Positions 3,077-59,711 of a stretch of 64,000 nucleotides of DNA are shown piece after piece. The notes beneath the pieces were generated by a model. The model had not been told where the DNA came from. It saw only the letters and a program-made list of their open reading frames with translations, and did not search any database. Location of the stretch: positions 384,001 through 448,000 of the forward strand of contig CBEVQO010000002.1 in assembly GCA_965552055.1 (NCBI GenBank), given 5' to 3'. How positions within the stretch are numbered: the stretch's first letter is position 1; each line of letters starts with the position of its first letter. The translations under genes were made by a program, and so were the position numbers. Source of the DNA: an uncultured bacterium. Lineage in GTDB: Bacteria; Hydrothermota; UBA3073; NMUJ01; CBEVQO01.

Positions 3077-3103
3077 AATTTAATTAAAATTTGCAATTGT
3101 CAA
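3077..3103 (-). promoter_or_regulatory. sigma70-like promoter TTGACA-N15-TAAATT, apparently leaderless (ATG 3070)
   Basis: Read from sequence; 6 nt between -10 and ATG; no SD. Confidence 0.7.
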
Positions 3104-3112
3104 GAAAAAATG

Positions 3113-3139
3113 TTGACATTTTCACAGGTTGATTAAAAA
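3113..3139 (+). promoter_or_regulatory. promoter TTGACA-N15-TAAAAA, apparently leaderless (GTG 3145)
   Basis: Back-to-back with the 3077-3103 promoter; weaker -10. Confidence 0.55.
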
Positions 3140-3144
3140 TAAAG

Positions 3145-4110
3145 GTGCGTAAATTTATTTTATTACTTTTCTTTTGTGGATGTGTAAAAGATGCTGGTTT
3201 TTCTTTGCTAAAAGATAGAGCACCAAAGCCTCACATATTTTTTGTTAAAGCACAAATTGATACTTCTTTTTTAGATTTTAAAAACCCGGGAAATTTAACT
3301 TATTTATATTGCGGAAATACGAATGAATTCGAAGTAAGAACTTTAATGACTTTTCATTATCCCGATACCCAAAAACCCTCTCTTGTCTTTCTTTTTGTAA
3401 AAGGTGCTACAACTTCCTGCTCTGTAAATGTGCATATTCTAAAAACAAAATGGCATCCGAATAGAGTATCATGGATACAGCCTGACACAGGACAAAATTG
3501 GTCAGGAGGAAATTTCTATGAAACACCAATACTATCTTTCAAAATAAAAGACACCGTCACAAAAATCGAAATACCTCCGGATAGTTTTATGAAAATCTGC
3601 GATACAATATATCACGGAATAATTTTAATTCCAAAAGATACAAATTTAACTTACTTCCCGGCTGATAGTTTTTATTTTTTATGCATCAAAGGCACAGATA
3701 CTATAAAATGTAAACCAATTTATCATACATCGATCGATACATTTAAAGCAGAACTTTCTAATAATTTAGTAAAATGCGGTTCACATTTGACAATTTGCAC
3801 ATTAAAAGTAAATACAGATAGCTTGTATCTCTATCCAAATTTAAATCAGGCAATAATTTATTTTGATTTCAAACTTTTAAAAGGCTACAAATTGACTTTG
3901 AGAATAAAAGGCAAAAATAGTTATTCCTCTTATCATTCTTTTAAAAACGGTGACACCATAAAAATAGATATTACAAGCGTAATTTCAGAGATAAAAGGCG
4001 ATACTCTGGACAAAATATTAATAGAACCCTCTAAATATCAGTTTTCAATAGGAGAAATTGAAAATCCAAGGATAAAATTAATAATGACAGAAAGTCCGGA
4101 TAGTTTATGA
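3145..4110 (+). CDS. Hypothetical lipoprotein
   Basis: 321-aa ORF with lipobox-like LFFCGC; beta-rich; overlaps the next gene. Confidence 0.65.
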   Translation: MRKFILLLFFCGCVKDAGFSLLKDRAPKPHIFFVKAQIDTSFLDFKNPGNLTYLYCGNTNEFEVRTLMTFHYPDTQKPSLVFLFVKGATTSCSVNVHILKTKWHPNRVSWIQPDTGQNWSGGNFYETPILSFKIKDTVTKIEIPPDSFMKICDTIYHGIILIPKDTNLTYFPADSFYFLCIKGTDTIKCKPIYHTSIDTFKAELSNNLVKCGSHLTICTLKVNTDSLYLYPNLNQAIIYFDFKLLKGYKLTLRIKGKNSYSSYHSFKNGDTIKIDITSVISEIKGDTLDKILIEPSKYQFSIGEIENPRIKLIMTESPDSL

Positions 4111-4982
4111 TTTTAATTCTGTTAACATATTCGCTTTTTTCAACAAAGTGCGAAGGAGAAAAAATAAACTATTATCACAAAATCAAATTTGAAAATGTAA
4201 GAAAAATCACCCTTTCTTTCCTTTCTTATGGTGTCTTATTCGAAAAAGATGACAAAAAAACTCAAGATTTCATGTTCTCAATAAAAAAATTATCTTATAT
4301 CAATCCAATATATAAAAATTTATGTGCTTATTTAATTTTTGAAAATGAGTATGACCACAGATTTTTTGTCCATTCCGATAGTTTTTCTTTAACAGAGAGC
4401 ATAAAATATGTAACGGAAGTACAGGGCGAAGGAGGAGCTAATTTAATCGCGATGGGAATTTTCAATAAATTTAAAAATATAACTGTATTTGCTGATTTGG
4501 GATATTTATTTGGAATATCGAGAGAAATCTGGAAAACTAAGTTCGAAGCACCTGTATCTATAAGAGAAGCTATCGACACGATTAACATCAAAAAATTTGA
4601 TAATTTTACTTATAATCTGGGATTCGAATTTAAAAAAGGAAGGCTTACGGTCGAGGGATGTTACAGAGATTTTGAAAATGATTTTTATTTAGGTGCATCT
4701 TTAAACTTTGATTTCTTATCCCTGTATGGCAGATACGGAAAATTTGATAAAATCTTTTCTTTATCTTTTCCTTGGTTTTACAATCTCACTGCCGGTGGAG
4801 GCATTAGAAACTGGGGAAATTTAGAATGCGAGGAAAGGTATCTTTTATTTTCGTTTGACTACATATTTATTGATAAAAAAGGAGGAATAATTTTACGGAT
4901 AGAACCCGGCGAACGAGTATATCAAAATCTTAAAGAAAAATTTTTAAGAATAAATATCACCCTTTCCGGCAAAGAAGGATAA
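4107..4982 (+). CDS. Hypothetical exported protein, possibly an outer-membrane beta-barrel
   Basis: Short signal peptide; alternating aromatic/Gly beta-strand pattern; ATGA overlap. Confidence 0.55.
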   Translation: MILILLTYSLFSTKCEGEKINYYHKIKFENVRKITLSFLSYGVLFEKDDKKTQDFMFSIKKLSYINPIYKNLCAYLIFENEYDHRFFVHSDSFSLTESIKYVTEVQGEGGANLIAMGIFNKFKNITVFADLGYLFGISREIWKTKFEAPVSIREAIDTINIKKFDNFTYNLGFEFKKGRLTVEGCYRDFENDFYLGASLNFDFLSLYGRYGKFDKIFSLSFPWFYNLTAGGGIRNWGNLECEERYLLFSFDYIFIDKKGGIILRIEPGERVYQNLKEKFLRINITLSGKEG

Positions 4983-5044
4983 AGTGTTAAAAAAGGTTAT
5001 GTGATATTGACCTTTTTAGAGATGGGTCGGAGGGAAGATAATGC

Positions 5045-5071
5045 TTGACAATTCTACATTTTATTTATAAT
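5045..5071 (+). promoter_or_regulatory. promoter TTGACA-N15-TATAAT, apparently leaderless (ATG 5077)
   Basis: Perfect consensus hexamers, 15-nt spacer, ATG 5 nt after -10. Confidence 0.8.
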
Positions 5072-5076
5072 TTGCG

Positions 5077-6354
5077 ATGGAAAGAAGGAAAGAAATAATT
5101 GGTGGAATCGTTACTTTTATGTCAATGGCGTATATTATTTTTGTTCAGCCTTCTGTCTTATCACAGGCAGGTATGGATTTTGGTGCAGTAATGATGGCAA
5201 CATGCTTATCTGCTGCATTTGCTACCCTTATGATGGGTCTTTATGCCAACTATCCAATTGCCCTTGCTCCAGGTATGGGTGAAAACTTTTATTTTGCATT
5301 TACGGTGATTCTTGGAATGGGGATTGCATGGCAAAAAGCACTTGGTGCTGTTTTTCTATCGGGTGTCATCTTTTTGATTTTAACTCTCGTAGGTATCCGT
5401 GAATTGATAATAAATGCTGTTCCTTCTTCCTTAAAGAATGCAATTGCTGCAGGGATTGGACTTTTTATCGCTTTCATAGGACTAAATCAGGCAGGCATTG
5501 TAAAAATCGAAGGAAATGTCATACATCTCGGAAGTATGAAATCACCTCCTGTTTTACTTACTTTATTTGGCTTATTCTTAATTTGTGTATTAATGAGATT
5601 TAATGTAAAAGGTTCGATTTTAATTGGTATGCTTGCCACGGCTGTTCTTGGAATAGCTCTTGGTTATCTTAAATTTTATGGTATTGTGGGTAAACCTCCT
5701 TCCATCTCTCCTACATTTCTCAAACTCGATATAAAAGGTGCGCTTGAACTCGGTTTTATAACGATAATCCTTGTATTTTTACTTATGGATATGTTTGATA
5801 CCGCAGGCACTTTGATAGGAGTTGGTCAGGCAGCTGGCTTTATAAAAGATGGTAAACTGCCGCGTGCTAATAGATGCCTGTTAACAGATGCTGTTGGCAC
5901 AATACTTGGTGCACTTTTGGGCACATCTACTGTTACAAGTTATATTGAGAGCGCTACAGGTGTAGCACAGGGTGCAAGAACAGGTTTTGCCAGTGTAATA
6001 ACAGGCTTATTATTTTTAATTTCTATTTTCTTCTATCCACTTGTGAAAACAATCGGCGGCGGTATGGAATGGCAGGGAGCAATTTTTTACCCAGTTACAG
6101 CACCCGCACTTATAATCGTGGGATATTACATGGCACATACACTAAAAGAAATAGAATGGGAAGATATTACAGAAGCAATTCCTGCATTTTTAACACTTAT
6201 CGGTATTCCTTTGACTTACAGCATTGCAGATGGTATGGCACTCGGCTTCATATCCTATTGTATAATAAAATTGCTGACAAAGAAAGGTAAAGAAGTTCAT
6301 CCAATCCTTTATGTATTTGCAGGTTTATTCATCTTCAAATATGTAATCTTCTAA
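5077..6354 (+). CDS. NCS2/AzgA-family purine permease
   Basis: TFMSMAYIIFV, ALAPGMG, DMFDTAGT, TSYIESATG..GARTG motifs; many TM helices. Confidence 0.92.
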   Translation: MERRKEIIGGIVTFMSMAYIIFVQPSVLSQAGMDFGAVMMATCLSAAFATLMMGLYANYPIALAPGMGENFYFAFTVILGMGIAWQKALGAVFLSGVIFLILTLVGIRELIINAVPSSLKNAIAAGIGLFIAFIGLNQAGIVKIEGNVIHLGSMKSPPVLLTLFGLFLICVLMRFNVKGSILIGMLATAVLGIALGYLKFYGIVGKPPSISPTFLKLDIKGALELGFITIILVFLLMDMFDTAGTLIGVGQAAGFIKDGKLPRANRCLLTDAVGTILGALLGTSTVTSYIESATGVAQGARTGFASVITGLLFLISIFFYPLVKTIGGGMEWQGAIFYPVTAPALIIVGYYMAHTLKEIEWEDITEAIPAFLTLIGIPLTYSIADGMALGFISYCIIKLLTKKGKEVHPILYVFAGLFIFKYVIF

Positions 6355-6356
6355 TT

Positions 6357-8292: not shown

Positions 8293-8293
8293 T

Positions 8294-8326
8294 TCAGTCA
8301 ATATAACCAAGCGCCTTTAATCTCCT
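8294..8326 (-). pseudogene. 3'-terminal remnant (RRLKALGYID*) of an alkaline-phosphatase/sulfatase-superfamily gene
   Basis: agg aga tta aag gcg ctt ggt tat att gac tga, ending 1 nt before the GT4 ATG; an in-frame stop lies 3 codons upstream. Confidence 0.5.
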
Positions 8327-8373
8327 GCATTTCTAATTCCTAACGCAAATTTCTCAAAATAATCATCAATAAT

Positions 8374-8400
8374 AATTTATAAAACTCAATAACATGTCAA
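8374..8400 (-). promoter_or_regulatory. promoter TTGACA-N15-TAAATT for GT4-tatD
   Basis: Read from sequence; an ATG at 8366 opens an 8-codon micro-ORF. Confidence 0.65.
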
Positions 8401-8421
8401 GGAAAATTTTTTATCATCAGC

Positions 8422-8448
8422 TTGACTTTTTGAAATTTAAATTACAAT
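8422..8448 (+). promoter_or_regulatory. promoter TTGACT-N15-TACAAT, apparently leaderless (GTG 8454)
   Basis: In-frame GTG 5 nt after -10 gives the family-typical N-terminus. Confidence 0.7.
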
Positions 8449-8453
8449 CTTAT

Positions 8454-10768: not shown

Positions 10769-12961
10769 CTATTTCAATATCAATATTTTCGTAAATTTAG
10801 TCTCTCCGCCTGCCCGTAATCCAACAAAATAAGCTCCCGCTTTTAGATTATCATTTTCAACATCCAAAATTATTCTATTTAGTCCTGCTAATGCTTCTCC
10901 TTCATATAATCGTTTTATTTCCCTTCCCATAATGTCGTATAATGTGATCTTCACATTGCTTCTCTTATTTAAAAGGTAGATTATATTAATTTTATCACCG
11001 CAAGGATTAGGATAAGTCGTAACACCCATTATTTCTCTCTCGCTGACCATAGTAGCTAATTCCACATTACCATTGCAAGCATGTACATTTGTAATCTCAA
11101 TTCCATCTATAGGAACATCATTTACTTTTACTTTAACATACATTGTGTTGTTCCCTCGAGGTAATTTATAACCCCTTGAACTATAGATTACTACTCGCTC
11201 TCCTGATTTAACAGAATTGTAAGATATCTCCATCGCTTCAGCACTGCATTGAATATCTTCAATTTCAAGCTGAGAGGGATTAAAATTAAGATCAAATTGT
11301 AAACCACTTATATCTACTTCACTATTTATTTCTATAGGGATAACATAAATTCCTGTTTTAAGCGGAAGATCTCCTATAGAGATACTTATTCGTCCTTTTT
11401 CCCCTTTTCCCATTTCTTCACCTAAAATGAGACACACTATCCCAATGGCATCCAAAATGTTTATTTCTCCATCCCCTGACGGATATGGTATTACATCTGC
11501 AGCCCACAGCTCATATTCAGTTGGCGGATCTCCTATTCCAAGAATAATATTAATACATCTTACAACATCAAGAACATCTATTTTTCCGTCGCAATTAACA
11601 TCCCCCTTTTTACCATAAGTGAAATAAATAAAACCATCTTCTGGCAACAAGTCCACCGGTTTTGCAAATGGATCACAAGCCACTACATCTTTTAAATGTA
11701 ACAAAGTGCTATCGCCTATTTGGGCATTCGTATTACAAGTAAAGTAAAGTTTCAAAATGTAACCATCTCCAGGTAAAATACATTGATTAGATAAACTATA
11801 AAGTATCACTTTAAGCGAGCCAGGATAAATATGATAATTTAAATCCATTAGTTCACTTCTCAAAGTTAAACTTATACTATCTATTGATATTAACTCATCT
11901 TCAAATTGTAAAGTGAATTGCAACCCTCCTATACTTTGACTTGGATTTATAAGTCGCAAATAAGTAAACCCATTATCTCCCGGTCTACAATAATTATCCA
12001 AAACTACTAAACGATTCTCTGATTCGACCTGTGTTCTATAAACATAATCAAAATATCGATCTCCATTCTCCTCATGTCCTCCTGCAATATAAATATATCC
12101 TTTCCATAAACCCGACTGTAAAAAATGGGCTTTGTAAGGCATTACTCCCACCAATTTCCACTCTCCTAATGAATGATCTTCCTTAATCTCTGCACAATAA
12201 ACTGAATCTATCTCTGACTGATTGGTCGATTTTCCTCCAAAAACATAAATTTTCCCATTATACACTAACGCCGTTAAACCACTCAAAGGTAGAGGTAAAG
12301 AAGTTGTTTCATACCATTCTTTTATAGTATGGTCATCTTCTATTTTTGCATAAAAAACTTTATTCTTTATCCCCACATTATAATCATAACCACCTATTAC
12401 ATAAATATAACCATCATACACAACACAAGCATGACCAACGACTTCTTCGGGCAAAGGTGTAGTTGTTAACCATTCGGCAACCTTTCCATCTTCTTCTATT
12501 TTTCCGTAAAATACAGTGTTCTTTGAATCAAACCAATTTCTCCCTCCTATAACATAAATATAACCATCATAGGCCACAGCATATCCATTATCTCGTGCTT
12601 CAGGTAAGTCTGCCATTCTCTGCCAAGGTTCTAATGAATGATCCCCTTTTATTTTCGCGCAATAACAATCATTGTAAAAACCATTGGGGCCTTGCCCTCC
12701 TATCACATAAATATAACCTCCATAATGAGTAAAGGAAATTCCTTGACGGCGTGACAAAGTTTCTGTAAGTGTCCACTCCAAAAAATTCCCGTCCTCCGTA
12801 ATTTTAGCATACCACACTTTCCCAGTAGTTTGGTAATCGCCAGTAAGTCCACAAAATGTATACACATAATCATCCACTATCACAAAACCAAATTCCGCTT
12901 GAGGCTTTGGTAAATCGCGTGTCTCAAGCCATTGAAGTGATAATAAAATTACCCACCACAT
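10769..12961 (-). CDS. Secreted Kelch-repeat protein with cohesin-like and dockerin domains and T9SS-type CTD
   Basis: About six YIYVIGG Kelch repeats; two GLQFxL cohesin-like modules; GDVNCDGKIDVLD...GDGEINILD dockerin; YPNP CTD. Confidence 0.8.
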   Translation of the reverse strand: MWWVILLSLQWLETRDLPKPQAEFGFVIVDDYVYTFCGLTGDYQTTGKVWYAKITEDGNFLEWTLTETLSRRQGISFTHYGGYIYVIGGQGPNGFYNDCYCAKIKGDHSLEPWQRMADLPEARDNGYAVAYDGYIYVIGGRNWFDSKNTVFYGKIEEDGKVAEWLTTTPLPEEVVGHACVVYDGYIYVIGGYDYNVGIKNKVFYAKIEDDHTIKEWYETTSLPLPLSGLTALVYNGKIYVFGGKSTNQSEIDSVYCAEIKEDHSLGEWKLVGVMPYKAHFLQSGLWKGYIYIAGGHEENGDRYFDYVYRTQVESENRLVVLDNYCRPGDNGFTYLRLINPSQSIGGLQFTLQFEDELISIDSISLTLRSELMDLNYHIYPGSLKVILYSLSNQCILPGDGYILKLYFTCNTNAQIGDSTLLHLKDVVACDPFAKPVDLLPEDGFIYFTYGKKGDVNCDGKIDVLDVVRCINIILGIGDPPTEYELWAADVIPYPSGDGEINILDAIGIVCLILGEEMGKGEKGRISISIGDLPLKTGIYVIPIEINSEVDISGLQFDLNFNPSQLEIEDIQCSAEAMEISYNSVKSGERVVIYSSRGYKLPRGNNTMYVKVKVNDVPIDGIEITNVHACNGNVELATMVSEREIMGVTTYPNPCGDKINIIYLLNKRSNVKITLYDIMGREIKRLYEGEALAGLNRIILDVENDNLKAGAYFVGLRAGGETKFTKILILK

Positions 12962-12978: not shown

Positions 12979-13005
12979 ATTTTATTCAAAAAATAAAATT
13001 GTCAA
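12979..13005 (-). promoter_or_regulatory. promoter TTGACA-N15-TAAAAT, short leader with SD AAGGAGG
   Basis: Read from sequence. Confidence 0.75.
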
Positions 13006-13060: not shown

Positions 13061-13087
13061 TTGACAAAATGGAAATATAGTTATAAT
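13061..13087 (+). promoter_or_regulatory. promoter TTGACA-N15-TATAAT, apparently leaderless (ATG 13094)
   Basis: Perfect hexamers; ATG 6 nt after -10. Confidence 0.8.
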
Positions 13088-14046: not shown

Positions 14047-14073
14047 TTGACATTTTGGTATTTTGAAGATAAT
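14047..14073 (+). promoter_or_regulatory. promoter TTGACA-N15-GATAAT
   Basis: Read from sequence; ATG 8 nt after -10. Confidence 0.6.
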
Positions 14074-19503: not shown

Positions 19504-19530
19504 TTTATAGTAAATTTGTCATTAAGTCAA
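19504..19530 (-). promoter_or_regulatory. promoter TTGACT-N15-TATAAA, apparently leaderless (ATG 19496)
   Basis: A TAAATT at 17-nt spacing is also possible here. Confidence 0.55.
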
Positions 19531-22220: not shown

Positions 22221-22247
22221 AGAATAAACAAAATGTGAGTTTGTCAA
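22221..22247 (-). promoter_or_regulatory. promoter TTGACA-N15-TATTCT, apparently leaderless secF
   Basis: ATG 7 nt after -10. Confidence 0.65.
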
Positions 22248-23518: not shown

Positions 23519-23545
23519 AATTTAATCAAAAACACTTTTTGTCAA
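23519..23545 (-). promoter_or_regulatory. promoter TTGACA-N15-TAAATT, apparently leaderless (ATG 23511)
   Basis: Read from sequence. Confidence 0.7.
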
Positions 23546-29180: not shown

Positions 29181-29207
29181 ATTTTACTCTATCTGCAGTA
29201 ATGTCAA
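29181..29207 (-). promoter_or_regulatory. promoter TTGACA-N15-TAAAAT, short leader with SD GGAGG
   Basis: Read from sequence. Confidence 0.75.
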
Positions 29208-30607: not shown

Positions 30608-30634
30608 AAATTAACATCAAAATTGGTTTGTCAA
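30608..30634 (-). promoter_or_regulatory. promoter TTGACA-N15-TAATTT, apparently leaderless miaB
   Basis: ATG 6 nt after -10. Confidence 0.7.
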
Positions 30635-31664: not shown

Positions 31665-31691
31665 AATTTAATCCGTTAATCTGTATGTCAA
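31665..31691 (-). promoter_or_regulatory. promoter TTGACA-N15-TAAATT for the TA pair
   Basis: Read from sequence. Confidence 0.65.
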
Positions 31692-33431: not shown

Positions 33432-33458
33432 ATCATAATCACCCTATGAGTTTGTCAA
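33432..33458 (-). promoter_or_regulatory. promoter TTGACA-N15-TATGAT, short leader with SD
   Basis: Read from sequence. Confidence 0.7.
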
Positions 33459-33477: not shown

Positions 33478-36300
33478 TTATTTTACTACGGACAAAGGCA
33501 AATTATTATCAAAATCGCCGTCTAAATCCGGGTTTTGCTTTCCTGCTGTTGCATTTCTCACCCTTTTATAAACCCAGTTGTATAATTCTCTCAGACGAAC
33601 AAATCCATCCCTATCTGTATCTGCCGAGCCCCGTAACCCTTTTATCAAATAATAGGTGAAAACGCCGTGATTATCCCATTTCTCTCCTTCAAAGGATACT
33701 TCACCAGCACTTGAGGCAGACATCACCGCCAAACTCCTGCGTGAAAGCGCAAGCTCTTCTATCAACTGCGAAACAAGATAATGTATCAATCCTCTCTTTA
33801 AACCGATTTCATCAATAAAACCACCAGAATGACAGGCATCTATGAAGAACACAATCTTACCTGCACGCGATAATTTAAGCAACCGTATAATATCCGAACT
33901 CGGAATGCCTGTAGCTGCTATTTTATCTGTTTCCGCATCATAGGGCAAAAAGTATAACTCATTGGCATAAGGAATACCGTGCAAAGCAAGATAACAAATA
34001 ACCATGTCATCTTTTCCTGCTCCTTTTAAAACCTTCTCAAAAGCATCAACTATATTTTTTCTGCTCGCTTTTTTATCTATTAAAAACCATATTTTATCAG
34101 GTGTAGCCCCGATAAACGGACTTTTCACAAGTTTATAAAAAGAAAGAGCATCGTTTGAAGCAGCCTTTAAGCGCAAGGATTTTTCCCTGTAATTTGAAAT
34201 CCCTATCACTATCGCCCAAATGGTAGGCAAAGAAAATTCCCTTCTGTCAATTACAAATTCATAAGAAGATTTTAAACCTTCCACATCTTCCGCTTCTATC
34301 CTCACATAATTTCTGCCTTCTCTTAACTTTATCTTCTCACTTATTTTATAAACTTTGCCAAAAATTTTCTTTTGTTTTAGTACCATGCCTCTTACTTCTT
34401 TTTTATTAAGGAAAATTTTCACATCCTTTATTCCCTTATCATCGAAAACCGCTCCATAAATTTCGTAAAATTCTTTATCTGTCTTCACATAAGAATCTTT
34501 TGGTTTGCTTATGGCAATTATTGGTGGGTTTTTCAAAAATATTCTGTAATATCTTATTTTTGGCTTTTCTTTTAAAATTTTGATTTTCTCCAGATTTTCT
34601 TTTCTTATCCATCCCGATAATCCTTTTTCTTCTATTTTAACCCATTCACCCATTTTTGCGGAAATAACTATATTTTGTCCAGAATCAATTTCTGCAATAA
34701 CAGGTAAGAAATCGCCTGCACCTGCATAAACTTTGACCCTGCTTTTTGTTCTGTAAAAATCTTTCACTTTCACAATTTTTGAAGGACGCATTTTTACAGG
34801 TAATTTTATATTAAATTCCCTTTTTATTCCCCAGAATTTATCAAAAATTTCAATTTTTAGAGGGATTTCTTTCCCTTTATATGCTGGTTTGCATGAAAAA
34901 TAAAATTTTGCTATTTTAACCTCCTGCGGATAGATTTTGCCAATTTCTTTTTCGGTCTTTGTGTGAAATTCAATATTTTTATAGTTTTTTGGTTTTATTT
35001 TAATTTTGACATCTCTACCTTCACCTGCACCTATATTTTTTACAAAAACATAAAGATTTATTCCTTCACCAGGTTGCACTATTCCATCGCCATTTCCCGG
35101 CTGGTCTTTAACCCTGTAAATGCAGGTAAAATCAGGATGTGGTAAACCCTCAACATAAATTTCTGTTCCTATATCCTGTGGATAATATCCATTATATTCT
35201 GTGAATTTTATTTCCAGAGGTATTTTTTGGGATTTTAAAGTTTCAGGTATTTCACAAATTAAAGATTTTGTGATTTCTTCTCCGGGTTTTAATCTTCCGA
35301 TTTCAAATTTTAAACCATTGAATATTTTTGACCTCGATTTTACAATTGCTTTTAAGCCATAAAATGTTCCGTCACCAATATTTTTTATTTTTAATTTCAG
35401 TAAAATTGACTCTCCTGCTCTTATGTGGTTACCGGGAAGTATCTGCAGGTCGCACCGAGCATAAGGCGTGCCACCCGGTTCTCCATGAAGATCGAGCAAA
35501 CTTAAAACTTTAAATTCATAAATCGGGCAAAAATCAACATTTTTAACTTTTAAAGTATAATTACCAGAAGGAGCATCTTCATCAATCTTTATCCTGACAG
35601 GAATTGATACCGCTTCACCAGGTTCTAACTCTTTTACTCTCTTCAAAACAGAAACTTCTGCATGATTTAACAAACTGCCTTCAAGAATCAAAGGAAAACT
35701 CTCAGATTTTAGATTCCCTCTATTCTCAATTTCTATATTGAGCATTTGATATTCTCCTGCTTCGAGTACTTTCTTTTTTGCATATATTTCTGCATATAAT
35801 TCTGGCGTATATTTTTTTATTTTCAAAGACCTTATCTCACCGAGCATTATTCCTGCTGATAAGAAAGGAGATATTTTTCCTTTTGTAAACTCTGCACCTG
35901 CTGATAATTCACCCGATATAACTCCTTTGCAGAACCTAACGCTTAAATTTGCTCTCCCTGTTTTCAATGTATCAAAAGGCTTTTGTAAATTTTGTGTCGC
36001 CCATCCGCACAGAGATAAATTTAAAAATGTGGAAAATTCGATTTGACCTGTTTTAAATGTTTTACCAAAAAGTGATAGGTAAAGATTTACAGGTAAAAAT
36101 AGGAATTTCTGACCAGAATCTATAAATGCTTCGCAGATGGAAGTGCCGATGCCTATCCCGGGAAAACCAGTACCCACGCTCATTCTTCCTGCTTTTATTT
36201 CTTTTTGATATTGATTTGCACCCAGATAAATGTAATCAAAGGAAATCCAGCCTTCGGGTTTATACTTTACCTGTAAAAGCAAAAAAAATATCCACATCAT
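33478..36300 (-). CDS. Exported caspase-like (C14) peptidase with Ig/CARDB-like and SH3-like domains
   Basis: WAIVIGISNY, ALHG (His), IDACHSG (Cys), HGVFTYYL..GLRG.AD; signal peptide. Confidence 0.85.
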   Translation of the reverse strand: MMWIFFLLLQVKYKPEGWISFDYIYLGANQYQKEIKAGRMSVGTGFPGIGIGTSICEAFIDSGQKFLFLPVNLYLSLFGKTFKTGQIEFSTFLNLSLCGWATQNLQKPFDTLKTGRANLSVRFCKGVISGELSAGAEFTKGKISPFLSAGIMLGEIRSLKIKKYTPELYAEIYAKKKVLEAGEYQMLNIEIENRGNLKSESFPLILEGSLLNHAEVSVLKRVKELEPGEAVSIPVRIKIDEDAPSGNYTLKVKNVDFCPIYEFKVLSLLDLHGEPGGTPYARCDLQILPGNHIRAGESILLKLKIKNIGDGTFYGLKAIVKSRSKIFNGLKFEIGRLKPGEEITKSLICEIPETLKSQKIPLEIKFTEYNGYYPQDIGTEIYVEGLPHPDFTCIYRVKDQPGNGDGIVQPGEGINLYVFVKNIGAGEGRDVKIKIKPKNYKNIEFHTKTEKEIGKIYPQEVKIAKFYFSCKPAYKGKEIPLKIEIFDKFWGIKREFNIKLPVKMRPSKIVKVKDFYRTKSRVKVYAGAGDFLPVIAEIDSGQNIVISAKMGEWVKIEEKGLSGWIRKENLEKIKILKEKPKIRYYRIFLKNPPIIAISKPKDSYVKTDKEFYEIYGAVFDDKGIKDVKIFLNKKEVRGMVLKQKKIFGKVYKISEKIKLREGRNYVRIEAEDVEGLKSSYEFVIDRREFSLPTIWAIVIGISNYREKSLRLKAASNDALSFYKLVKSPFIGATPDKIWFLIDKKASRKNIVDAFEKVLKGAGKDDMVICYLALHGIPYANELYFLPYDAETDKIAATGIPSSDIIRLLKLSRAGKIVFFIDACHSGGFIDEIGLKRGLIHYLVSQLIEELALSRRSLAVMSASSAGEVSFEGEKWDNHGVFTYYLIKGLRGSADTDRDGFVRLRELYNWVYKRVRNATAGKQNPDLDGDFDNNLPLSVVK

Positions 36301-39567: not shown

Positions 39568-39594
39568 AATTTAATTAAATTTTTATAAAGTCAA
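39568..39594 (-). promoter_or_regulatory. promoter TTGACT-N15-TAAATT for secA
   Basis: Followed by a G-rich SD. Confidence 0.7.
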
Positions 39595-39596: not shown

Positions 39597-40787
39597 TTAA
39601 TCTTCTTTCCACACAGGATACATAACTTTTCCTATGAATAAAATTGTCCCCGTATAATTGTCAAATATTACAAAGACGAAAGGCCTGTTTACATAAAAAT
39701 AAGGTGGAAGAGACACAATTAAATCCATCACTGTAACAGCAGATGCCTCTGTGCCTTCTTCATCCACCTGAATGAATGTCGCATGGATTGCTTTTCTTAT
39801 CCAGGGACATAATGTATCTTCAAATATATCTTTAAAATTTGCTTTTCCTGGAGTAAACGCTATTCCCATACCAAGTGAAGTTAATGCTTCTTTCATAGTG
39901 TTATCATACTTACATTTAATTTTAAATTTTGGAAAGTAAATGTGTACGGTGCATTCTGTAAAATCGTTGAGCCATCTTTCCCAATTTTCAGAATTCATAT
40001 TATTTATAACAGTATCAATGTTGCTCTCTGGTAGAATTACCATCATATTGAAATTTCCGTTACCATAAGGCAGGATAATTGCATCGAATTTATCTTCATC
40101 CAAATATTTGCAATATATTTTTTGACGCATCATATAGCATGGGATTTTGCCTGTGGGAGAGTAAAAAGTATCTATGAAAGTGCTTTCTTCTGGAAATCTG
40201 AAAGTCCATATTCCTTTGTAATAGAGGGCGTTTACAAGAACCATTACATCTTCAGGGTCTATGTAATCCACAACATCTTCTATTTTGCCATTTGTTTCCG
40301 TTTCTATCCAGTTATTTATCACATCTTTTGCATTCGGGTCGCCAAAGTTAAGAGCTGTGATTTTTGCATCAAAATATTTCTCACATGTGGATTTGAACTT
40401 ATCTCTCACTTTTAAATCTTCTCTATACCATATTGAGTTTGCGATGTTTAACTTCACTCTGTTATCAAGTTGTGGCAATAAATCTTTTATCTTTCTGTAA
40501 GTGTAGTTTATTTCGTCATCTGTAAGTCCATCAAATCCAAGCACATTTTTCATTGCCTTTTCCGTGCTATCCCTTGCGCCATTGAGGAGCATACCCAGTG
40601 CCATTGATGCGCTTAAAGGTGATATCACAATATTCGTATCGCCCTCAATTTTGTTTATCTCCCTGAAAAGATTAAAGCCGAATTCGTTGAATCCATCCAC
40701 TATTTCTGTATCGGTGAGAGTGAGTTTAGGAAGTCCTGTCTCCCTGCATCCCCAGAAACAAATTAAAATGAGGATAAGATAACGCAT
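39597..40787 (-). CDS. Serpin (lipoprotein)
   Basis: ISPLS, ANSIW, NALYYKG.W, EEGTEASA hinge, FYVNRPFVF; lipobox FWGC. Confidence 0.93.
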   Translation of the reverse strand: MRYLILILICFWGCRETGLPKLTLTDTEIVDGFNEFGFNLFREINKIEGDTNIVISPLSASMALGMLLNGARDSTEKAMKNVLGFDGLTDDEINYTYRKIKDLLPQLDNRVKLNIANSIWYREDLKVRDKFKSTCEKYFDAKITALNFGDPNAKDVINNWIETETNGKIEDVVDYIDPEDVMVLVNALYYKGIWTFRFPEESTFIDTFYSPTGKIPCYMMRQKIYCKYLDEDKFDAIILPYGNGNFNMMVILPESNIDTVINNMNSENWERWLNDFTECTVHIYFPKFKIKCKYDNTMKEALTSLGMGIAFTPGKANFKDIFEDTLCPWIRKAIHATFIQVDEEGTEASAVTVMDLIVSLPPYFYVNRPFVFVIFDNYTGTILFIGKVMYPVWKED

Positions 40788-40788
40788 C

Positions 40789-41949
40789 TTACCCCCTATC
40801 TTCTTTCCACACAGGATACATAACTTTGCCTATGAATAGAATTGTCTTTGTGTATTTGTCAAATATTACAAAAATGAAAGGTCTGTTCACATGAAATAGT
40901 ATGGGAATCCTATGTATTACGCGTTTCTCGAGAACAACCGAAGTTGCAGCGACTGCTTCTGTGCCTTCTTCGTCCACTCTGATGAATGTCGCATGCTTTA
41001 CCCTATCTATCCAGATTTGTTCATCGGTAATGTCTCTAAAATTTGCCAAAATGCGAGAAAAAGCTATTTTCATATCCAGAGCTTTAAGCACATCGTTTAG
41101 TTCGTATTTACACTTAATTTTAAATTTGGGTAAATGTACTTCTACTTCTCTATCTTTGAATTTCTTCAATAAATCCTGCCATTTCTGTGGATTAAACAAT
41201 AAAATTATGTCATCAACATTTATTTTTTCATGCGGAAGGATAATCATCATTTCAAATCTCTCTTTATCCTTTTTACCGTACGGCAAAATAATAGCCGAAA
41301 ATTTATCGTCAGAAAAATATTTACAGGTGATTTCCCTTTTCATCATATAACAGAGCATTTTACCTTCAGGAGTATAAAATGTATCAATATAGGTTTTTTC
41401 TTTGTCAAATTTATAAGCCCAAAGTCCCTTAAAATAAACAGCGTTAATCAAAAACATCACATCAAGTGGTTTTATAGTATCTACTATTTTTTCAATCTTT
41501 CCTCTCGTTTTTCTTTTAACCCAGTTATTTATGGTATCTTTTGCCCATTTTTTAGTAAAATCTAAATCTCTTATTTCTGCATCAAAATATTTCTTGTTTA
41601 CTTCTATGAATTTCTTTTTCACTTTAAAACCTTTGCGATACCATATTGAATTTGCCACATCCATTGTTATTGCAGAATCCCTCTTTAATAAACTATCTTT
41701 TAACTCTCTGTAAATTTTGTTTATTTCATCTTTTTTGAGATTTGAAAATCCCAAGACATTTTTAATTGCTTTTTCTGTACTGTCTCTCGCACCGTTAAGC
41801 AACATACCGAGTGCCACTGATACACTTAAAGGTGATATTACCACATTTGTGTCTCCTTCAATCTCATTTACTTTTTTGAATAGTTTAAAAGTAAATTCGT
41901 TGAATGGAGAGGAAATCAAGTTATATAATATCAAAAATAAAAGCATCAT
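40789..41949 (-). CDS. Serpin (secreted)
   Basis: ISPLS, NAVYFKG.W, EEGTEAVAAT hinge, FHVNRPFIF. Confidence 0.93.
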   Translation of the reverse strand: MMLLFLILYNLISSPFNEFTFKLFKKVNEIEGDTNVVISPLSVSVALGMLLNGARDSTEKAIKNVLGFSNLKKDEINKIYRELKDSLLKRDSAITMDVANSIWYRKGFKVKKKFIEVNKKYFDAEIRDLDFTKKWAKDTINNWVKRKTRGKIEKIVDTIKPLDVMFLINAVYFKGLWAYKFDKEKTYIDTFYTPEGKMLCYMMKREITCKYFSDDKFSAIILPYGKKDKERFEMMIILPHEKINVDDIILLFNPQKWQDLLKKFKDREVEVHLPKFKIKCKYELNDVLKALDMKIAFSRILANFRDITDEQIWIDRVKHATFIRVDEEGTEAVAATSVVLEKRVIHRIPILFHVNRPFIFVIFDKYTKTILFIGKVMYPVWKEDRG

Positions 41950-43509: not shown

Positions 43510-43536
43510 ATTGTAATCTTTATTTTAATTTGTCAA
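43510..43536 (-). promoter_or_regulatory. promoter TTGACA-N15-TACAAT, apparently leaderless (ATG 43504)
   Basis: ATG 5 nt after -10. Confidence 0.75.
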
Positions 43537-43711: not shown

Positions 43712-43738
43712 TTGACATATAAGAGAACCGATTAAACT
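43712..43738 (+). promoter_or_regulatory. promoter TTGACA-N15-TAAACT, apparently leaderless (ATG 43744)
   Basis: ATG 5 nt after -10. Confidence 0.75.
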
Positions 43739-47601: not shown

Positions 47602-47628
47602 TTGACTTTACAGTTCTTTAATTAAAAT
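47602..47628 (+). promoter_or_regulatory. promoter TTGACT-N15-TAAAAT, apparently leaderless (ATG 47634)
   Basis: Second ATG lies 5 nt after -10. Confidence 0.7.
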
Positions 47629-49598: not shown

Positions 49599-49625
49599 TT
49601 GACAAATAAATAATTTGATTAAATT
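49599..49625 (+). promoter_or_regulatory. promoter TTGACA-N15-TAAATT, apparently leaderless rph
   Basis: ATG 5 nt after -10. Confidence 0.75.
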
Positions 49626-50355: not shown

Positions 50356-51312
50356 ATGCCTCTAATAGTTTTTGAAAGAAAAGTTCGTGCTGGTGCAGGA
50401 ATGCGTCTTGACAAATATTTACATCAAGTAGGACTCGGACTCTCTCGTACACAAATCCAGAAATTAATAGAAGAAGGCAAAGTACTGGTAAATGGCAGAC
50501 CTGTAAAACCCAGTTATACTTTGAAAAGAGGAGATGAAATTTATGCAGAATACGAAAGAAAAGAACCTTTAAAGATAGAACCTGAACCCATTCCCCTTGA
50601 TATAATTTATGAAGATGATTACATAGTAGTTGTGAACAAGCCTGCTGGTATGGTTACGCACCCTGCGCCCGGCAATCTACGTGGCACCCTTGTAAATGCG
50701 CTTTTACATCACTGCGGCTTGGCAAAAGCAGATAGTATCGCAAGACCAGGCGTAGTCCATAGACTTGATAAAGACACATCGGGAGTTATTGTTTTCGCAA
50801 AAGAAAAGATTGCCTTATCAAATCTTGCAGAACAACTGCAAAAAAGAAGAATGAAAAAAGAATATTTAACATTTGTATGGGGAAATTTGCCACTGGATAA
50901 AGGAATAATCGATGCTCCGATTGGCAGGGATTTTATCGATAGGAAAAAAATGGCAGTAACACCTCTTTTATCCAAAGATGCTATTACCGAATATTTTGTT
51001 GAAAAGCGTTATAAATACATAACATTTGCGAGGGTGCATATTTTAACAGGCAGGACACATCAAATAAGGGTACACATGGCGCACATAGGGCATCCTGTTG
51101 TGGGTGACGAAACTTATCAGGGTAGACAGCGCTTATCGGGTATACCCCATGAATTTTTCGAAAAGGTTTTAGAAATTATGCAAAGACAGGCGTTGCATTC
51201 ACATAAACTTGGTTTTGAACATCCTGTTACAAAAAAATGGATGGAATTTGAAGCTCCTCTTCCAGAAGACATGAGAAACTTAAAAGAGTTTTTGGAGGCA
51301 CAAATTAATTGA
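50356..51312 (+). CDS. rluD: RluA/RluD-family pseudouridine synthase
   Basis: S4 domain RLDKYL, NKPAGMVTHP, HRLDKDTSG, GRTHQIRVH, QALH. Confidence 0.9.
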   Translation: MPLIVFERKVRAGAGMRLDKYLHQVGLGLSRTQIQKLIEEGKVLVNGRPVKPSYTLKRGDEIYAEYERKEPLKIEPEPIPLDIIYEDDYIVVVNKPAGMVTHPAPGNLRGTLVNALLHHCGLAKADSIARPGVVHRLDKDTSGVIVFAKEKIALSNLAEQLQKRRMKKEYLTFVWGNLPLDKGIIDAPIGRDFIDRKKMAVTPLLSKDAITEYFVEKRYKYITFARVHILTGRTHQIRVHMAHIGHPVVGDETYQGRQRLSGIPHEFFEKVLEIMQRQALHSHKLGFEHPVTKKWMEFEAPLPEDMRNLKEFLEAQIN

Positions 51313-51335
51313 CAAAACTGTAAATCGATTATAAT
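51309..51335 (+). promoter_or_regulatory. promoter TTGACA-N15-TATAAT, short leader with SD AAGGAGG
   Basis: Perfect hexamers; heads the lipoate-carrier operon. Confidence 0.8.
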
Positions 51336-54764: not shown

Positions 54765-54772
54765 GGGGTAAA

Positions 54773-55861: not shown

Positions 55862-55872
55862 TTTTTAACTTT

Positions 55873-56142
55873 TTATTTTCTTAAACCCAGCTCCTTTATT
55901 ATTTTTCGATATCTTTCCGGGTCTTTTTCCATCAAATATTGTAACAATCTTTTTCTCTTGTTAACCATGGCGATCAGTCCTCTTCTCGAGTGTATATCCT
56001 TTTTGTGTTGCGAGAGATGTCGTGTAAGGTTGTTGATTCTTTCTGTAAGAATCGCTATCTGCACCTCAGGTGACCCTGTATCTTTTTCGTGTAATCTAAA
56101 TTTTTCTATGAGTTCTTTTTTCCTTTCTTTTGATATCGACAT
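55873..56142 (-). CDS. rpsO: 30S ribosomal protein S15
   Basis: [28 protein letters not shown]. Confidence 0.98.
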
Positions 56143-56151
56143 CCCTCCCTC

Positions 56152-57291
56152 CTATTTTATCCTTCTAACAGCAAGCAGCGCAATATCATCGAACAACTCC
56201 TGCCCCTCAGAAAACGCTAACACTTCATTTAATATCCCTTTTAGAAACATGTCAATATCAAATTTTGAATATTTTACTATCGCATCATAAAACCTTTTTT
56301 CTCCGAATCTTTCCTTTTTCTTATTTCTTGCATCAACAACACCATCAGTATATAAAATAATCATATCTCCCACTTCAATATTAAAATCCACAATTTCAAG
56401 GGATTTTATAAACTCATTGTGATTTACTATTCCCAGTGCCTTACCTTTGGGTCTTATAAGTTTTACTTCGTCAGCCTTATAGGGCAGGTGTATCATTGGT
56501 TTATGACCTGCATTTGCGTAAGTTATTTTATGATATTCCTGCTCCAAAACTCCATATCCCATTGTTACGAACATAAAAGGTGGAATATCCGAAAGTAACT
56601 TTCTATTCAAACCATCTAACAATTCTTTTATGTTTTGCGGATTTCTTGCATAGTATAGGATAAGTGCCCTAACTTCTGACATTACTAGAGTTGCAGGAAT
56701 TCCTTTACCGCTCACATCTGCGATGACAAGTCCATAAAGATTATCCTGAAAAGGTATAATGGCACAATAATCTCCTCCTACTTTTTCTGCCGGAAAAACA
56801 ACAGCATTCGCCTCATAATATTCATTTTGCAGTTTATATTTCGGCAAAAATGTATCCTGAATCCTGCGAGCAACTTCCATCTCGTGCTTTAACCTCTCTG
56901 CTTCTCTTATATCATGCAACATCTTCCTGACATCCTTTATCGTCTGATCAAACATCTTCGAAATATACCCTACTTCATCACGAGATGCCACTTCTACAGA
57001 ACGGGAAATGTCACCCAGGGCAACACGCTTTACGCTCTCCCTTAAATAACGCAATGGCTTCGTTATAAGCCTCAAAGAAGGATACGATAAGCCATAAAGA
57101 AAAAGGATACTTAAAAATAGAGCCCAGTTATAAAAAAAATCCAACAGAAAAATATAAAGTAACAAAAGTGAAAACCCAACATATATCCTTATTTTAAACT
57201 CAAGGGTAAATTCTTTTTCTCTCAAACATTTAAAATACTCAATAGCCAGTGCTATCACTATTACAATTGCAGGGATAAATTTCTCCATCAC
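56152..57291 (-). CDS. Membrane HAMP plus SpoIIE/PP2C phosphatase
   Basis: VGGDY, IADVSGKG, NAGH, YTDG, DDIAL; HAMP RDEVG. Confidence 0.9.
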   Translation of the reverse strand: MMEKFIPAIVIVIALAIEYFKCLREKEFTLEFKIRIYVGFSLLLLYIFLLDFFYNWALFLSILFLYGLSYPSLRLITKPLRYLRESVKRVALGDISRSVEVASRDEVGYISKMFDQTIKDVRKMLHDIREAERLKHEMEVARRIQDTFLPKYKLQNEYYEANAVVFPAEKVGGDYCAIIPFQDNLYGLVIADVSGKGIPATLVMSEVRALILYYARNPQNIKELLDGLNRKLLSDIPPFMFVTMGYGVLEQEYHKITYANAGHKPMIHLPYKADEVKLIRPKGKALGIVNHNEFIKSLEIVDFNIEVGDMIILYTDGVVDARNKKKERFGEKRFYDAIVKYSKFDIDMFLKGILNEVLAFSEGQELFDDIALLAVRRIK

Positions 57292-58436
57292 ATTTTCGCA
57301 TAAGGTAAAAATAATCTTTCGTATTCATCCTGTGCAAATCTATCTGTCATTCCAGCGATATAATCACATACTATCTGCTCAGGTGGAGCATCACCGCATC
57401 TCTTCTTAAAATCAGGTGGAATTTGCCTCATATCCGAAAGATAGGTCGTAAAAAGAGCTTTAACATAACGCTTCGCTTTATTCTGCATCTTTACAACCTT
57501 ATAATGAGTATACAAATTTTCGTATAAAAATTTCTTTAACTCATTTTGATACTCTGCCATATCTTTGCTAAATTCCACAAGAGGCGGCAATTCTCTTACC
57601 TTTTCAACAGAATCTACATTATGTTTTTCGATATTCCTAAGAGTAGTATTTATCACATCCTCAATTTGAGCAGAAATGAGTTTTCTTAAAGTTTTCCGAA
57701 TACAAAGTTCAATATCTTTCCCTTTAAGTTCCTTTTTAACTTCATCAAAAATTTCTTTCCAGATTTTTACTTCCTCCAGTTGTTCAAGTTCGATGTAGCC
57801 CGATTTCAATCCATCATCTATATCATGGACATTATATGCGATTTCATCTGCAAGATTTATAATTTGTGCTTCTATCGTTGGCGATTTATCAGGTTCAAAT
57901 TCTTTTAATTGAGATATATCCGGCTTATCATAAACAGTTACATGTTTAACAATTCCTTCTCTTACTTCAAAAGTAAGATTAAGTCCATGGAAATCGGGAT
58001 AACGATATTCGAGCACATCCACTACTCTTAATCCCTGCAAATTATGTTCAAAACCATTTGGCATAAGCTCGTTTAATGCTTCTTCACCAGCATGTCCAAA
58101 AGGTGGATGTCCTATATCATGTGCAAGTGCTATGGCTTCGGTAAGGTCTTCATTAACCCTGAGTGCACGCGCAATAGTGCGAGCAATTTGAGCAACCTCA
58201 ATCGTATGCGTTAACCTTGTCCTGTAATAATCACCTTCATGATTGACAAAAACCTGTGTTTTATATTCCATGCGCCTGAAAGCTGTGGAATGTATTATTC
58301 TGTCCCTATCTCTCTGATAACATGTCCTGTATTCATATTCTTCTTCGGGATATTTTCTCCCCCTAGAATATTTAGCTTTCATAGCATAGGGAGCCAGAAC
58401 CTTTTCTTCTAAATTAAGTAATTCTTTGGAGGTCAT
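57288..58436 (-). CDS. dgt: Deoxyguanosinetriphosphate triphosphohydrolase-like protein
   Basis: RDRDRIIHS, RTRLTH, AHDIGHPPFGHAGE, DYIAGMTD. Confidence 0.93.
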   Translation of the reverse strand: MTSKELLNLEEKVLAPYAMKAKYSRGRKYPEEEYEYRTCYQRDRDRIIHSTAFRRMEYKTQVFVNHEGDYYRTRLTHTIEVAQIARTIARALRVNEDLTEAIALAHDIGHPPFGHAGEEALNELMPNGFEHNLQGLRVVDVLEYRYPDFHGLNLTFEVREGIVKHVTVYDKPDISQLKEFEPDKSPTIEAQIINLADEIAYNVHDIDDGLKSGYIELEQLEEVKIWKEIFDEVKKELKGKDIELCIRKTLRKLISAQIEDVINTTLRNIEKHNVDSVEKVRELPPLVEFSKDMAEYQNELKKFLYENLYTHYKVVKMQNKAKRYVKALFTTYLSDMRQIPPDFKKRCGDAPPEQIVCDYIAGMTDRFAQDEYERLFLPYAKM

Positions 58437-59239
58437 ATTGATAAAGCCTCACAAATAAGCTCTGTAAAATATTTTACCTCTATACCTGTGAAATCTGGAT
58501 AGTTTTCCTTTATAAAATCCTGAAAGTTCTTAAGATTATAATGGCAAAGCGGACAGGAGGTTATCAAAATTTCTCCTCCCCTATCTATTGCGGATTTAAG
58601 TATCTTGTGAGCCCTCTCAATAACGAATTCCTTTTCATTTACAACCTGATAACTTCCGCAACATTCATTCATAAATGGAAACTCAACGGGCTCACCGCCT
58701 ATTGCTTTTATTAAATCGGATAATATATGGGGATTCTCAGGGTCATCAAGCGCTGCTTCTTCGGGACGCAAAAGCATACATCCATAATAAGGTGCCACTT
58801 TCTTACCTATCTTTTTCTTCACCATTTGCCCCAATTTATCGAAACCAAATTCTTTTAACAAATGAAGACCATGAATTACCTCAACACCTCCATCATATTT
58901 CGTTTCCTCTTCATACATCAAATCGTTTATCTTATCCATCTTTTCTTTATCTCTTTTCACAAGTAAATCAACTCTTTTAAGGGTGTTGTAACACATAGAG
59001 CACATACACAAAATCTTATCTGCCCCTTCTTCCTTTGCTCTTATCAAATTTCTGAAAGACGCAACATGAAACATAACATTATCAGAAGCAAGTGAATAAA
59101 CTGTTCCACAACAATTCCATCTATCGAGTTCTTTTATGTCGTATCCTAAATACTTAAAGAGTTTTTTCGAAGTCTCATCAAATTCTTTCGCATCTGATTT
59201 TAAGGTGCATCCAGGATAATATAAAATCTTCTCACTCAT
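58433..59239 (-). CDS. hdrB: Heterodisulfide reductase subunit B-like protein
   Basis: YYPGC, WNCCG, CSMC, YYGCMLLRP, ECCG, CPLC. Confidence 0.88.
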   Translation of the reverse strand: MSEKILYYPGCTLKSDAKEFDETSKKLFKYLGYDIKELDRWNCCGTVYSLASDNVMFHVASFRNLIRAKEEGADKILCMCSMCYNTLKRVDLLVKRDKEKMDKINDLMYEEETKYDGGVEVIHGLHLLKEFGFDKLGQMVKKKIGKKVAPYYGCMLLRPEEAALDDPENPHILSDLIKAIGGEPVEFPFMNECCGSYQVVNEKEFVIERAHKILKSAIDRGGEILITSCPLCHYNLKNFQDFIKENYPDFTGIEVKYFTELICEALSI

Positions 59240-59631
59240 GCTGATAACTTTCTTTGCGCACTTATCAAAGCAATTGGTGGCAGGATTTTTCTTTCATCTT
59301 CCTTTATTTTATTCAAATGCACATGGTCTATATTTTCGCGTAATTTCAACAATCTAACGGCTTCAAACACACGGGCAAGGTCAATTCCCCGGGGACACCT
59401 GACAGTACACATAAAGCAACTTGCACAAATCCATATCGTTTTTGAATCAATTACCCTCCTTACATTGCCCATCTGTAAATACCTTATCGCCTGATTCGGA
59501 AGCAAATCCATTGCAGAAGCAGAAGGACAACTACCAGAACATCTACCACACTGATAGCACAACATTATGTTTTGCTCAGATATCTCTTCTATTCTCTTAA
59601 GCTCGGAAATGTTCAATCCTAAATTCATCAT
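59236..59631 (-). CDS. hdrC: Heterodisulfide reductase subunit C-like 2x[4Fe-4S] protein
   Basis: CYQCGRCSGSCP and CASCFMCTVRCP; true start may be 59628. Confidence 0.88.
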   Translation of the reverse strand: MMNLGLNISELKRIEEISEQNIMLCYQCGRCSGSCPSASAMDLLPNQAIRYLQMGNVRRVIDSKTIWICASCFMCTVRCPRGIDLARVFEAVRLLKLRENIDHVHLNKIKEDERKILPPIALISAQRKLSA

Positions 59632-59633
59632 CT

Positions 59634-59660
59634 ATTTTAATCCTATTCCCAGAATGTCAA
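59634..59660 (-). promoter_or_regulatory. promoter TTGACA-N15-TAAAAT, apparently leaderless hdrC
   Basis: ATG 59628 lies 5 nt after -10. Confidence 0.75.
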
Positions 59661-59684
59661 GTTATTTTTGAAAAAATTTTCCGC

Positions 59685-59711
59685 TTGACATTTTTAAATT
59701 TCTTTTAAATT
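59685..59711 (+). promoter_or_regulatory. promoter TTGACA-N15-TAAATT, apparently leaderless (ATG 59718)
   Basis: ATG 6 nt after -10. Confidence 0.75.

Follow-up and report, generated by a model that had tools for sequence, protein, structure and literature searches.

Promoter spacing in the window and in the source genome

The stretch analysed here, hereafter the window, is 64,000 nucleotides (nt) long (assembly GCA_965552055.1, contig CBEVQO010000002.1, forward-strand positions 384,001 to 448,000) and comes from an uncultured bacterium of the phylum Hydrothermota. It raises the question of why promoters with ordinary −35 and −10 hexamers should keep them 15 rather than 17 base pairs (bp) apart. 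A preliminary description of the window had named 23 TTGAC(A/T) sites, reported TAnnnT beginning after exactly 15 nt in 20 of them and a perfect TATAAT in three, and seen no consistent −10 hexamer at 17 nt. Our recount was identical: all 23 hexamers were recovered with position and strand unchanged (3113 and 14047 on the plus strand, 19530 on the minus strand), TAnnnT followed after exactly 15 nt in 20/23, the three perfect sites were 5045, 13061 and 51309, and TAnnnT was present at 17 nt in only 2/23 and at 13, 14, 16, 18 or 19 nt in none. Since the 23 sites were a selection from 85 TTGAC(A/T) sequences in the window, the test was extended to the whole assembly of the source genome (G000; 2.23 Mb, 15 contigs, ~35% GC, 97% complete), using our own longest open-reading-frame calls as genes, so that start positions are approximate.

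The results showed that the 15-bp spacing is real, genome-wide and lineage-specific, with textbook hexamers at a non-textbook distance. Exact TTGACA-Nk-TATAAT matches on both strands of G000 numbered 121 at k=15, compared with 7, 27, 7 and 4 at k=14, 16, 17 and 18 respectively. Among 596 non-coding, gene-facing TTGAC(A/T) sites, TAnnnT was found at 15 in 340, at 16 in 51 and at 17 in 67, and 300 shuffles gave 28±5 matches at k=15 (maximum 43), a twelve-fold excess for the real sequence. The matches at 17 were mostly shadows, falling from 67 to 16 once sites matching at 15 were removed. When a logo was anchored on the −35 hexamer alone, unseeded, the −10 element emerged at offset 21–26, and a mixture model assigned weights of 0.67 to a 15-bp spacer, 0.08 to 16, 0.00 to 17 and 0.23 to none. 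The same model, which was seeded with a TAnnnT-like matrix, gave −10 weights of 0.97 for T−12, 0.98 for A−11 and 0.88 for T−7. Divergently placed first genes, scanned with a looser −35, had a match at 15 in 219/366, with 19–58 at other spacings. The main motif of G000 is TTGAC(A/T)-N15-TA(A/T)AAT, and its spacers carry a patterned A/T tract ending G−15 A−14 T−13; spacer sequences vary from site to site. Thus the spacer histogram against shuffled DNA, which the preliminary description had proposed as a check, peaks at 15, far above the shuffles; its word 'fixed' was slightly too strong, as the 15-bp class is dominant genome-wide and a minor 16-bp class is real.

A non-A at −9 co-occurred with T at −8 in G000 (25/55 versus 51/287), and a separate short-sigma promoter class was considered on this basis; the flanks of the two groups are identical, which leaves it as a lead only. 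A viral scan for the extended 15-bp motif gave 17 single matches, none repeated within a contig.

Register of the −10 element relative to genes

Both tandem promoters (P1 and P2) of the ribosomal RNA (rRNA) operon of G000 have a 15-bp spacer. For the 48 genes encoding transfer RNA (tRNA) or transfer-messenger RNA (tmRNA), a promoter match lay within 70 nt for 21, and 20/21 of these were at 15 with a pattern that returns the shortest spacer from 14 to 18. The mature 5′ ends are mostly 6–9 nt past the −10 element. Many tRNA genes of G000 have a promoter of their own, so placed as to imply that the precursor leader is no longer than a few bases.

Start codons help to fix the register as well. Of 421 strong sites, 120 have an ATG 5 nt past the −10 element and 60 have one 6 nt past it. 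Frames of at least 80 codons are opened by 101/120 of the former, which rules out the ATG at 5 nt being a mere promoter motif, and long frames by 51/60 of the latter; a later alternative start led by a Shine–Dalgarno sequence was found for only 2/137 of the ATG or GTG starts at 5 nt. A second class of starts lies 16–19 nt past the −10 element, with a Shine–Dalgarno-like motif in 43/46. The start codons imply that transcription probably begins no more than 6 bp past the −10 element and that the mRNA is often leaderless. If the −10 element lay at 17, only 3 nt would separate its end from the commonest start codon position, less than initiation as known allows, so that a 17-bp register does not fit. 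The ATG peak of family f6 falls at 6–7 nt, and G000 is thus shorter by approximately one base here too. A G directly precedes the apparent leaderless start codon in 72% of 137 cases at 5 nt and 63% of 59 at 6 nt, and may be a leader of a single base or else a start element of an unusual kind.

Distribution of the spacing across the phylum

Named homologues indicate that the phylum is probably WOR-3. The pattern TTGACW-Nk-TANNWT was counted at k=15, 16 and 17 only in 151 genomes of the phylum, and a mode was called where the top count was at least twice the lowest and at least 20 above it. Four genomes had a mode of 15, 86 of 16 and 45 of 17, and 16 had no clear mode; the commonest mode of the phylum is thus 16, not 17. 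The only genomes peaking at 15 were the four of the order to which the window belongs, namely G000 (453/95/119 at k=15/16/17) and three genomes of its sister family f2 (G001, 119/48/22; G070, 107/40/16; G105, 74/27/11). In a tree of RpoB plus RpoC pieces from 15 genomes this order forms a clade (support 85/95), and its neighbours in the class peak at 16 or 17. As the four genomes are kin and not independent, they point to one origin, with a shift of 1–2 bp from the neighbours. Related families can be equally strict at other distances (f4, 51/75/480, at 17; f24, represented by G066, 27/575/77, at 16). Family f3 was considered as a second 15-bp lineage, since exact-match counts hinted at it, and was ruled out by relaxed counts of 78/198/169. 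The genomes without a clear TTGACA-based mode belong mostly to families f20, f28 and f30.

Within f2, 754 kb of the ~1.4 Mb G001 genome yielded 168 sites, with a match at 15 in 62, at 16 in 31 and at 17 in 9, and a T-rich −10 element. The spacers of G001 have 39% GC and lack the patterned A/T tract seen in G000.

Sigma factors and core enzyme of the order

G000 encodes five sigma factors: RpoD, a short sigma of 265 residues, a FliA-like protein and two small ones. The RpoD gene (G000:C7:57373-59100, equivalent to L002:490-2217) follows dnaG, and its product has regions 1.1, 1.2, 2, 3 and 4 and falls inside the RpoD clade at 100/100. It scores 284.8 bits against a curated TIGR02393 cut-off of 354, which only 48 of the 151 phylum genomes pass. 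Among 28 RpoDs of the phylum, only that of G000 has lost one residue where region 3.0 ends and gained two, each singly, in region 3.2. Region 2.4 is changed as well. In Escherichia coli numbering, a hydrophobic residue and a lysine stand at T440 and R441 and an asparagine at E458. The E458 position is kept in 11/11 RpoDs of 17-mode genomes and 6/16 of 16-mode genomes, a comparison confounded by kinship. The melting aromatics and the region-4.2 residues are retained, and an extra region-1.1-like copy (residues ~67–127) is absent from the relatives aligned. An AlphaFold model supports the duplicated 1.1-like domain and an intact region-3.0 helix, and is uninformative on spacing.

Over regions 2–4, RpoD of G000 is 48% identical to the other families of the class, compared with 60–70% among those, whereas for RpoB the values are 69% and 71–77%. 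No RpoD homologue beyond its own cluster exceeds 53% identity over regions 2–4, and a scan of a genome collection with RpoD returned distant matches only. The RpoD gene from a second sample differs at seven codons, 7/7 synonymously (P about 1e-5), indicating that RpoD is maintained under purifying selection, which would be compatible with its being an essential primary sigma. A decaying gene was ruled out by this result together with the equally divergent RpoDs of family f15, whose promoters have 16-bp spacers. A gene at G000:C2:239483-239809 (minus strand), presumably for a ribosomal protein S14-like product, contains an inserted stretch that matches sigma70 region 3 (E 2.9e-11), and a 230-residue coiled-coil protein is encoded between rpsL-like and rpsG-like genes at L008:3447-4139 (minus strand).

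In the three f2 genomes, G001, G070 and G105 (99, 87 and 66% complete), RpoD was not found with region-2, region-3 or RpoD models, and the only sigmas detected were the short sigma and one of the extracytoplasmic function (ECF) type. This is the only family without any RpoD match; 145/151 phylum genomes have one, and two weak matches may be short sigmas. In G001 and G070 the gene directly after dnaG is an unrelated one. The short sigma, which lacks region 1.1, thus appears to be the sole housekeeping candidate in f2, in parallel with Bacteroidetes. Its G000 counterpart (C5:66580-67377, minus strand) lies in a degP–sigma–M23 locus, and a representative 96% identical to it (P0121) has regions 1.2, 2, 3 and 4 only. 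Compared with Staphylococcus aureus SigA, the linker between regions 3.2 and 4 is three residues shorter in the G000 protein and ~2 shorter in f2. In a midpoint-rooted tree with long branches, the short sigma falls outside the RpoD clade and is not grouped with the primary sigmas of Bacteroidota.

The promoters of G000 and G001 also differ in sequence. A C precedes TTGACA in 52% of sites in G000 and 36–81% in the RpoD-bearing families f3, f4 and f6, compared with 19% in RpoD-less G001 (Fisher P=2e-7), and the −10 consensus is TAWAAT in G000 versus TATtTT in G001. As G000 promoters resemble those of RpoD-bearing relatives and not those of G001, we infer that RpoD is the probable reader in G000 and the short sigma the probable reader in f2.

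The core comparison took in the flap and the C-terminus of RpoB, together with RpoC up to residue 400, and none of these parts has an indel common to both families. A four-residue insertion near RpoC residue 190 is found in G000 alone. A longer β C-terminal tail was considered as a shared core feature and rejected, because the 17-mode genome G020 has a longer one; according to the accessible text of 10.1101/534826, this tail affects spacer-dependent activity in Mycobacterium tuberculosis. In f2, rpoB is not followed by rpoC (G001 C18 and C31; G070 C62 and C115).

What sets the 15-bp spacing

We favour an inherited shift in holoenzyme geometry as the explanation of the 15-bp spacing, with a probability of roughly one half. 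The members of the order would share, by descent from their common ancestor, a holoenzyme in which sigma regions 2 and 4 sit approximately two bp nearer to each other than in the textbook enzyme, and the N15-spaced hexamers would be the true −35 and −10 elements. In G000 the remodelled group-1 RpoD would read 15-bp promoters, and in f2 the short sigma without region 1.1 would read 15/16-bp ones. Since two different sigmas would work at the same spacing, we lean towards a shared determinant in the core, or towards promoters whose spacing became fixed first, so that the replacement sigma had to adapt to it. The more specific proposal, that the order reset the 17-bp ruler to 15 through the core RNA polymerase and that the remodelled RpoD and the short sigma both read 15-bp promoters, is made tentatively and at less than even odds.

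The preliminary description had likewise suggested an altered geometry of sigma or RNA polymerase, naming the sigma region 3–4 linker, the β′ zipper and the β flap. The sigma part of that suggestion gains indirect backing from the indels in RpoD regions 3.0–3.2, the extra 1.1-like copy and the region-2.4 changes; no indels were found in the flap tip or the zipper. Several observations weigh against a shift in holoenzyme geometry. No indel common to both families was found in the β flap tip, the β′ zinc-binding domain, the zipper or the clamp helices, where the two families have in common only single-residue changes, for example K to R at the base of the flap tip. The RpoDs of f15 score 248–296 bits, compared with 288 for G000, yet their spacer is 16 bp, so that an RpoD this divergent is no hallmark of a 15-bp spacer. 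In G000, a strict scan of the 12 kb ending at rpoD found no 15-bp promoter, whereas a perfect one precedes the run of same-strand genes to which the short-sigma gene belongs. Finally, only one RpoD-less genus ties the promoter features to the type of sigma.

One of the two main alternatives is a replacement of sigma, in which the short sigma would have taken over housekeeping transcription in the order's ancestor, bringing a 15-bp optimum with it, and RpoD would then have been lost in f2 and be specialising in G000. The restricted sigma set of f2 with its preference for 15, the shortened linker in both families, the promoter upstream of the short-sigma gene run and the low identity of RpoD next to that of RpoB all agree with this, and the available part of PMC6847099 gives Bacteroidetes as a precedent for such a primary sigma. 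However, this order does not stand out for conservation of the short sigma (48% between G000 and G001, with means of 36–46% in other families), and G000 promoters are unlike those of G001 at −36, −9 and −8, in the A-tract upstream and in how far away the ATG lies. The purifying selection on RpoD and the codon scores (2nd percentile for the short sigma versus 26th for rpoD, a weak measure) also count against a takeover, which we consider rather unlikely.

DNA topology offers a third explanation, the other main alternative: on a chromosome left relaxed or overwound by reverse gyrase, an ordinary holoenzyme would find the twist it needs over fewer bp. A full-length reverse gyrase is encoded at G000:C4:82901-86113, and within the class the enzyme was detected in this order alone (3/4 of its genomes). 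The composition of G000 (IVYWREL 0.43; 16S 62% GC) suggests a thermophile growing near 68 °C. However, the 30 reverse-gyrase genomes of the phylum have modes of 17 in 15, 16 in 3 and 15 in 3, with nine unclear; half of the carriers peak at 17, and therefore overwinding alone is no explanation and reverse gyrase as a sufficient cause was ruled out. Loss of gyrase was ruled out too, as GyrA is present in G000, G001 and G070. Moreover, an axial difference of ~7 Å is not removable by twist. AA/TT periodicity, used as a proxy for supercoiling, was uninformative. The relaxed or overwound chromosome proposed in the preliminary description thus stands as far as the presence and restriction of reverse gyrase go, but not as a cause on its own; topology may contribute to the 15-bp spacing without being sufficient, and as the explanation it is improbable.

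Still more doubtful is that an accessory factor or an A/T-tract spacer bends or overtwists the DNA so that an ordinary holoenzyme fits 15 bp. The patterned tract ending G−15 A−14 T−13 in G000 would suit such bending, but G001 lacks it and still prefers 15, and a search of five genomes for CarD, the one factor searched for, found none that stands alone, with matches only within frames of 946–1098 residues. That the pattern is not promoter geometry at all (AT-rich chance, a repeat or a regulator site), or that the true −10 element lies at 17, is scarcely credible given the twelve-fold excess over shuffles, the varied spacers, the sites before rRNA and tRNA genes and the 3 nt that would separate such an element from the commonest start codon.

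Promoters and genes of the window

Each of the 23 window sites has a −35 hexamer and, 15 nt on, a −10 hexamer or a near match to it. The perfect TTGACA-N15-TATAAT sites are all on the plus strand. That at 5045..5071 has an ATG 5 nt past the −10 element (5077) of a gene of the xanthine/uracil permease family, that at 13061..13087 an ATG 6 nt past (13094), and that at 51309..51335 a Shine–Dalgarno-led ATG (51355) for a glycine cleavage H protein. Near matches are TAAAAA at 3113..3139 (plus; GTG 5 nt past, 3145), GATAAT at 14047..14073 (plus; ATG 8 nt past, 14082) and TATAAA at 19504..19530 (minus; ATG 7 nt past, 19496). The first is the divergent partner of a TAAATT site at 3077..3103 (minus), where an ATG 6 nt past (3070) opens a peptidase C25 gene with a secretion-system C-terminal sorting domain.

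The −10 hexamer TAAATT recurs on the minus strand at 8374..8400, with a glycosyltransferase gene downstream, at 23519..23545 (ATG 7 nt past, 23511), at 31665..31691 and at 39568..39594, ahead of secA with a Shine–Dalgarno-led ATG (39549); on the plus strand it is found at 49599..49625 (ATG 5 nt past, 49631; RNase PH) and 59685..59711 (ATG 6 nt past, 59718; PHP domain). TAAAAT is used at 12979..13005 (minus; Shine–Dalgarno-led ATG 17 nt past, 12961), 29181..29207 (minus; Shine–Dalgarno-led ATG, 29163; OsmC-like), 47602..47628 (plus; ATG 5 nt past, 47634) and 59634..59660 (minus; ATG 5 nt past, 59628). TACAAT is present at 8422..8448 (plus), before a phosphodiesterase-family gene whose GTG is 5 nt past (8454), and at 43510..43536 (minus; ATG 5 nt past, 43504). 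The remaining four sites have TATTCT (22221..22247, minus; ATG 7 nt past, 22213; SecF family), TAATTT (30608..30634, minus; ATG 6 nt past, 30601; radical SAM/TRAM enzyme), TATGAT (33432..33458, minus; Shine–Dalgarno-led ATG, 33411) and TAAACT (43712..43738, plus; ATG 5 nt past, 43744).

The window matched no Rfam family. On its minus strand are two tandem serpins ahead of secA (39597-41949), a caspase-domain protein (33478-36300) and a pair of proteins that each carry a secretion-system C-terminal sorting domain (152-3070 and 10769-12961).

Significance and comparison with known systems

For the sigma70 holoenzyme a spacer of 17 bp counts as a structural constant, and a lineage in which promoter-like sites, those of rRNA and tRNA genes included, have their peak at 15 shows that this ruler can evolve. 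With families at strict 17 (f4), strict 16 (f24) and 15, the roles of sigma, core and topology could be tested by subunit swaps, and if the core was indeed reset the phylum would be a natural 17–16–15 series for finding what sets the ruler. A 15-bp holoenzyme could also form the basis of a semi-orthogonal expression system. Prediction programs that learned promoters with 17-bp spacers would overlook 15-bp ones.

A literature search, with most subscription journals outside it, found no description of a 15-bp housekeeping mode. In 49 species with mapped start sites, 17 bp was predominant with a start 7 bp past the −10 element, and WOR-3 is not mentioned in the accessible text (bioRxiv 10.1101/2025.01.23.634641), although its supplements may hold exceptions. 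For E. coli the range is 15–21 with an optimum of 17 (PMC8695583, available part), and the accessible portions of PMC12285271 and PMC12542636 gave no match to promoter and sigma terms.

The comparisons that follow hold for the available text of the sources cited. Sigma28 (FliA) promoters, TNAAG-N15-GCC, share the nominal spacer of 15 but have other hexamers and other element boundaries, and serve an alternative sigma with a small regulon (PMC3333780); their TNAAG and GCCGATA elements are not matched by the G000 logos. Bacteroidetes σABfr with its −33/−7 promoters (PMC6847099) resembles the apparent f2 system in the lack of region 1.1 and the T-rich −10 element, and the nearest named homologues of the f2 short sigma include Bacteroidota proteins. 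In contrast, G001 has TTGACA and TATtTT instead of TTTG/TANNTTTG, the spacing in f2 is 15/16, and G000 keeps RpoD. The leaderless −10-motif promoters of Deinococcus-Thermus (PMC12340547) likewise have TAnnnT within a few bases ahead of the start codon, a placement that points to leaderless mRNA, whereas G000 adds a strong −35 element at 15 bp.

The closest likeness is to canonical sigma70/SigA of E. coli and Bacillus subtilis, shared in the TTGACA/TATAAT-like hexamers, the upstream A-tract, the location before rRNA, tRNA and core genes, and a group-1 RpoD beside dnaG. G000 differs in its modal spacer of 15 instead of 17 (mixture weights 0.67 and 0.00, where 17±1 bp is usual), in having G−15 A−14 T−13 in place of TG at −15/−14, and in a start codon often only 5 nt past the −10 element, with a predicted transcription start at no more than 6 bp compared with 7 (10.1101/2025.01.23.634641). 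Judged by its sequence, the G000 promoter is one that works like the sigma70 housekeeping type, yet departs from it in the length of its spacer.

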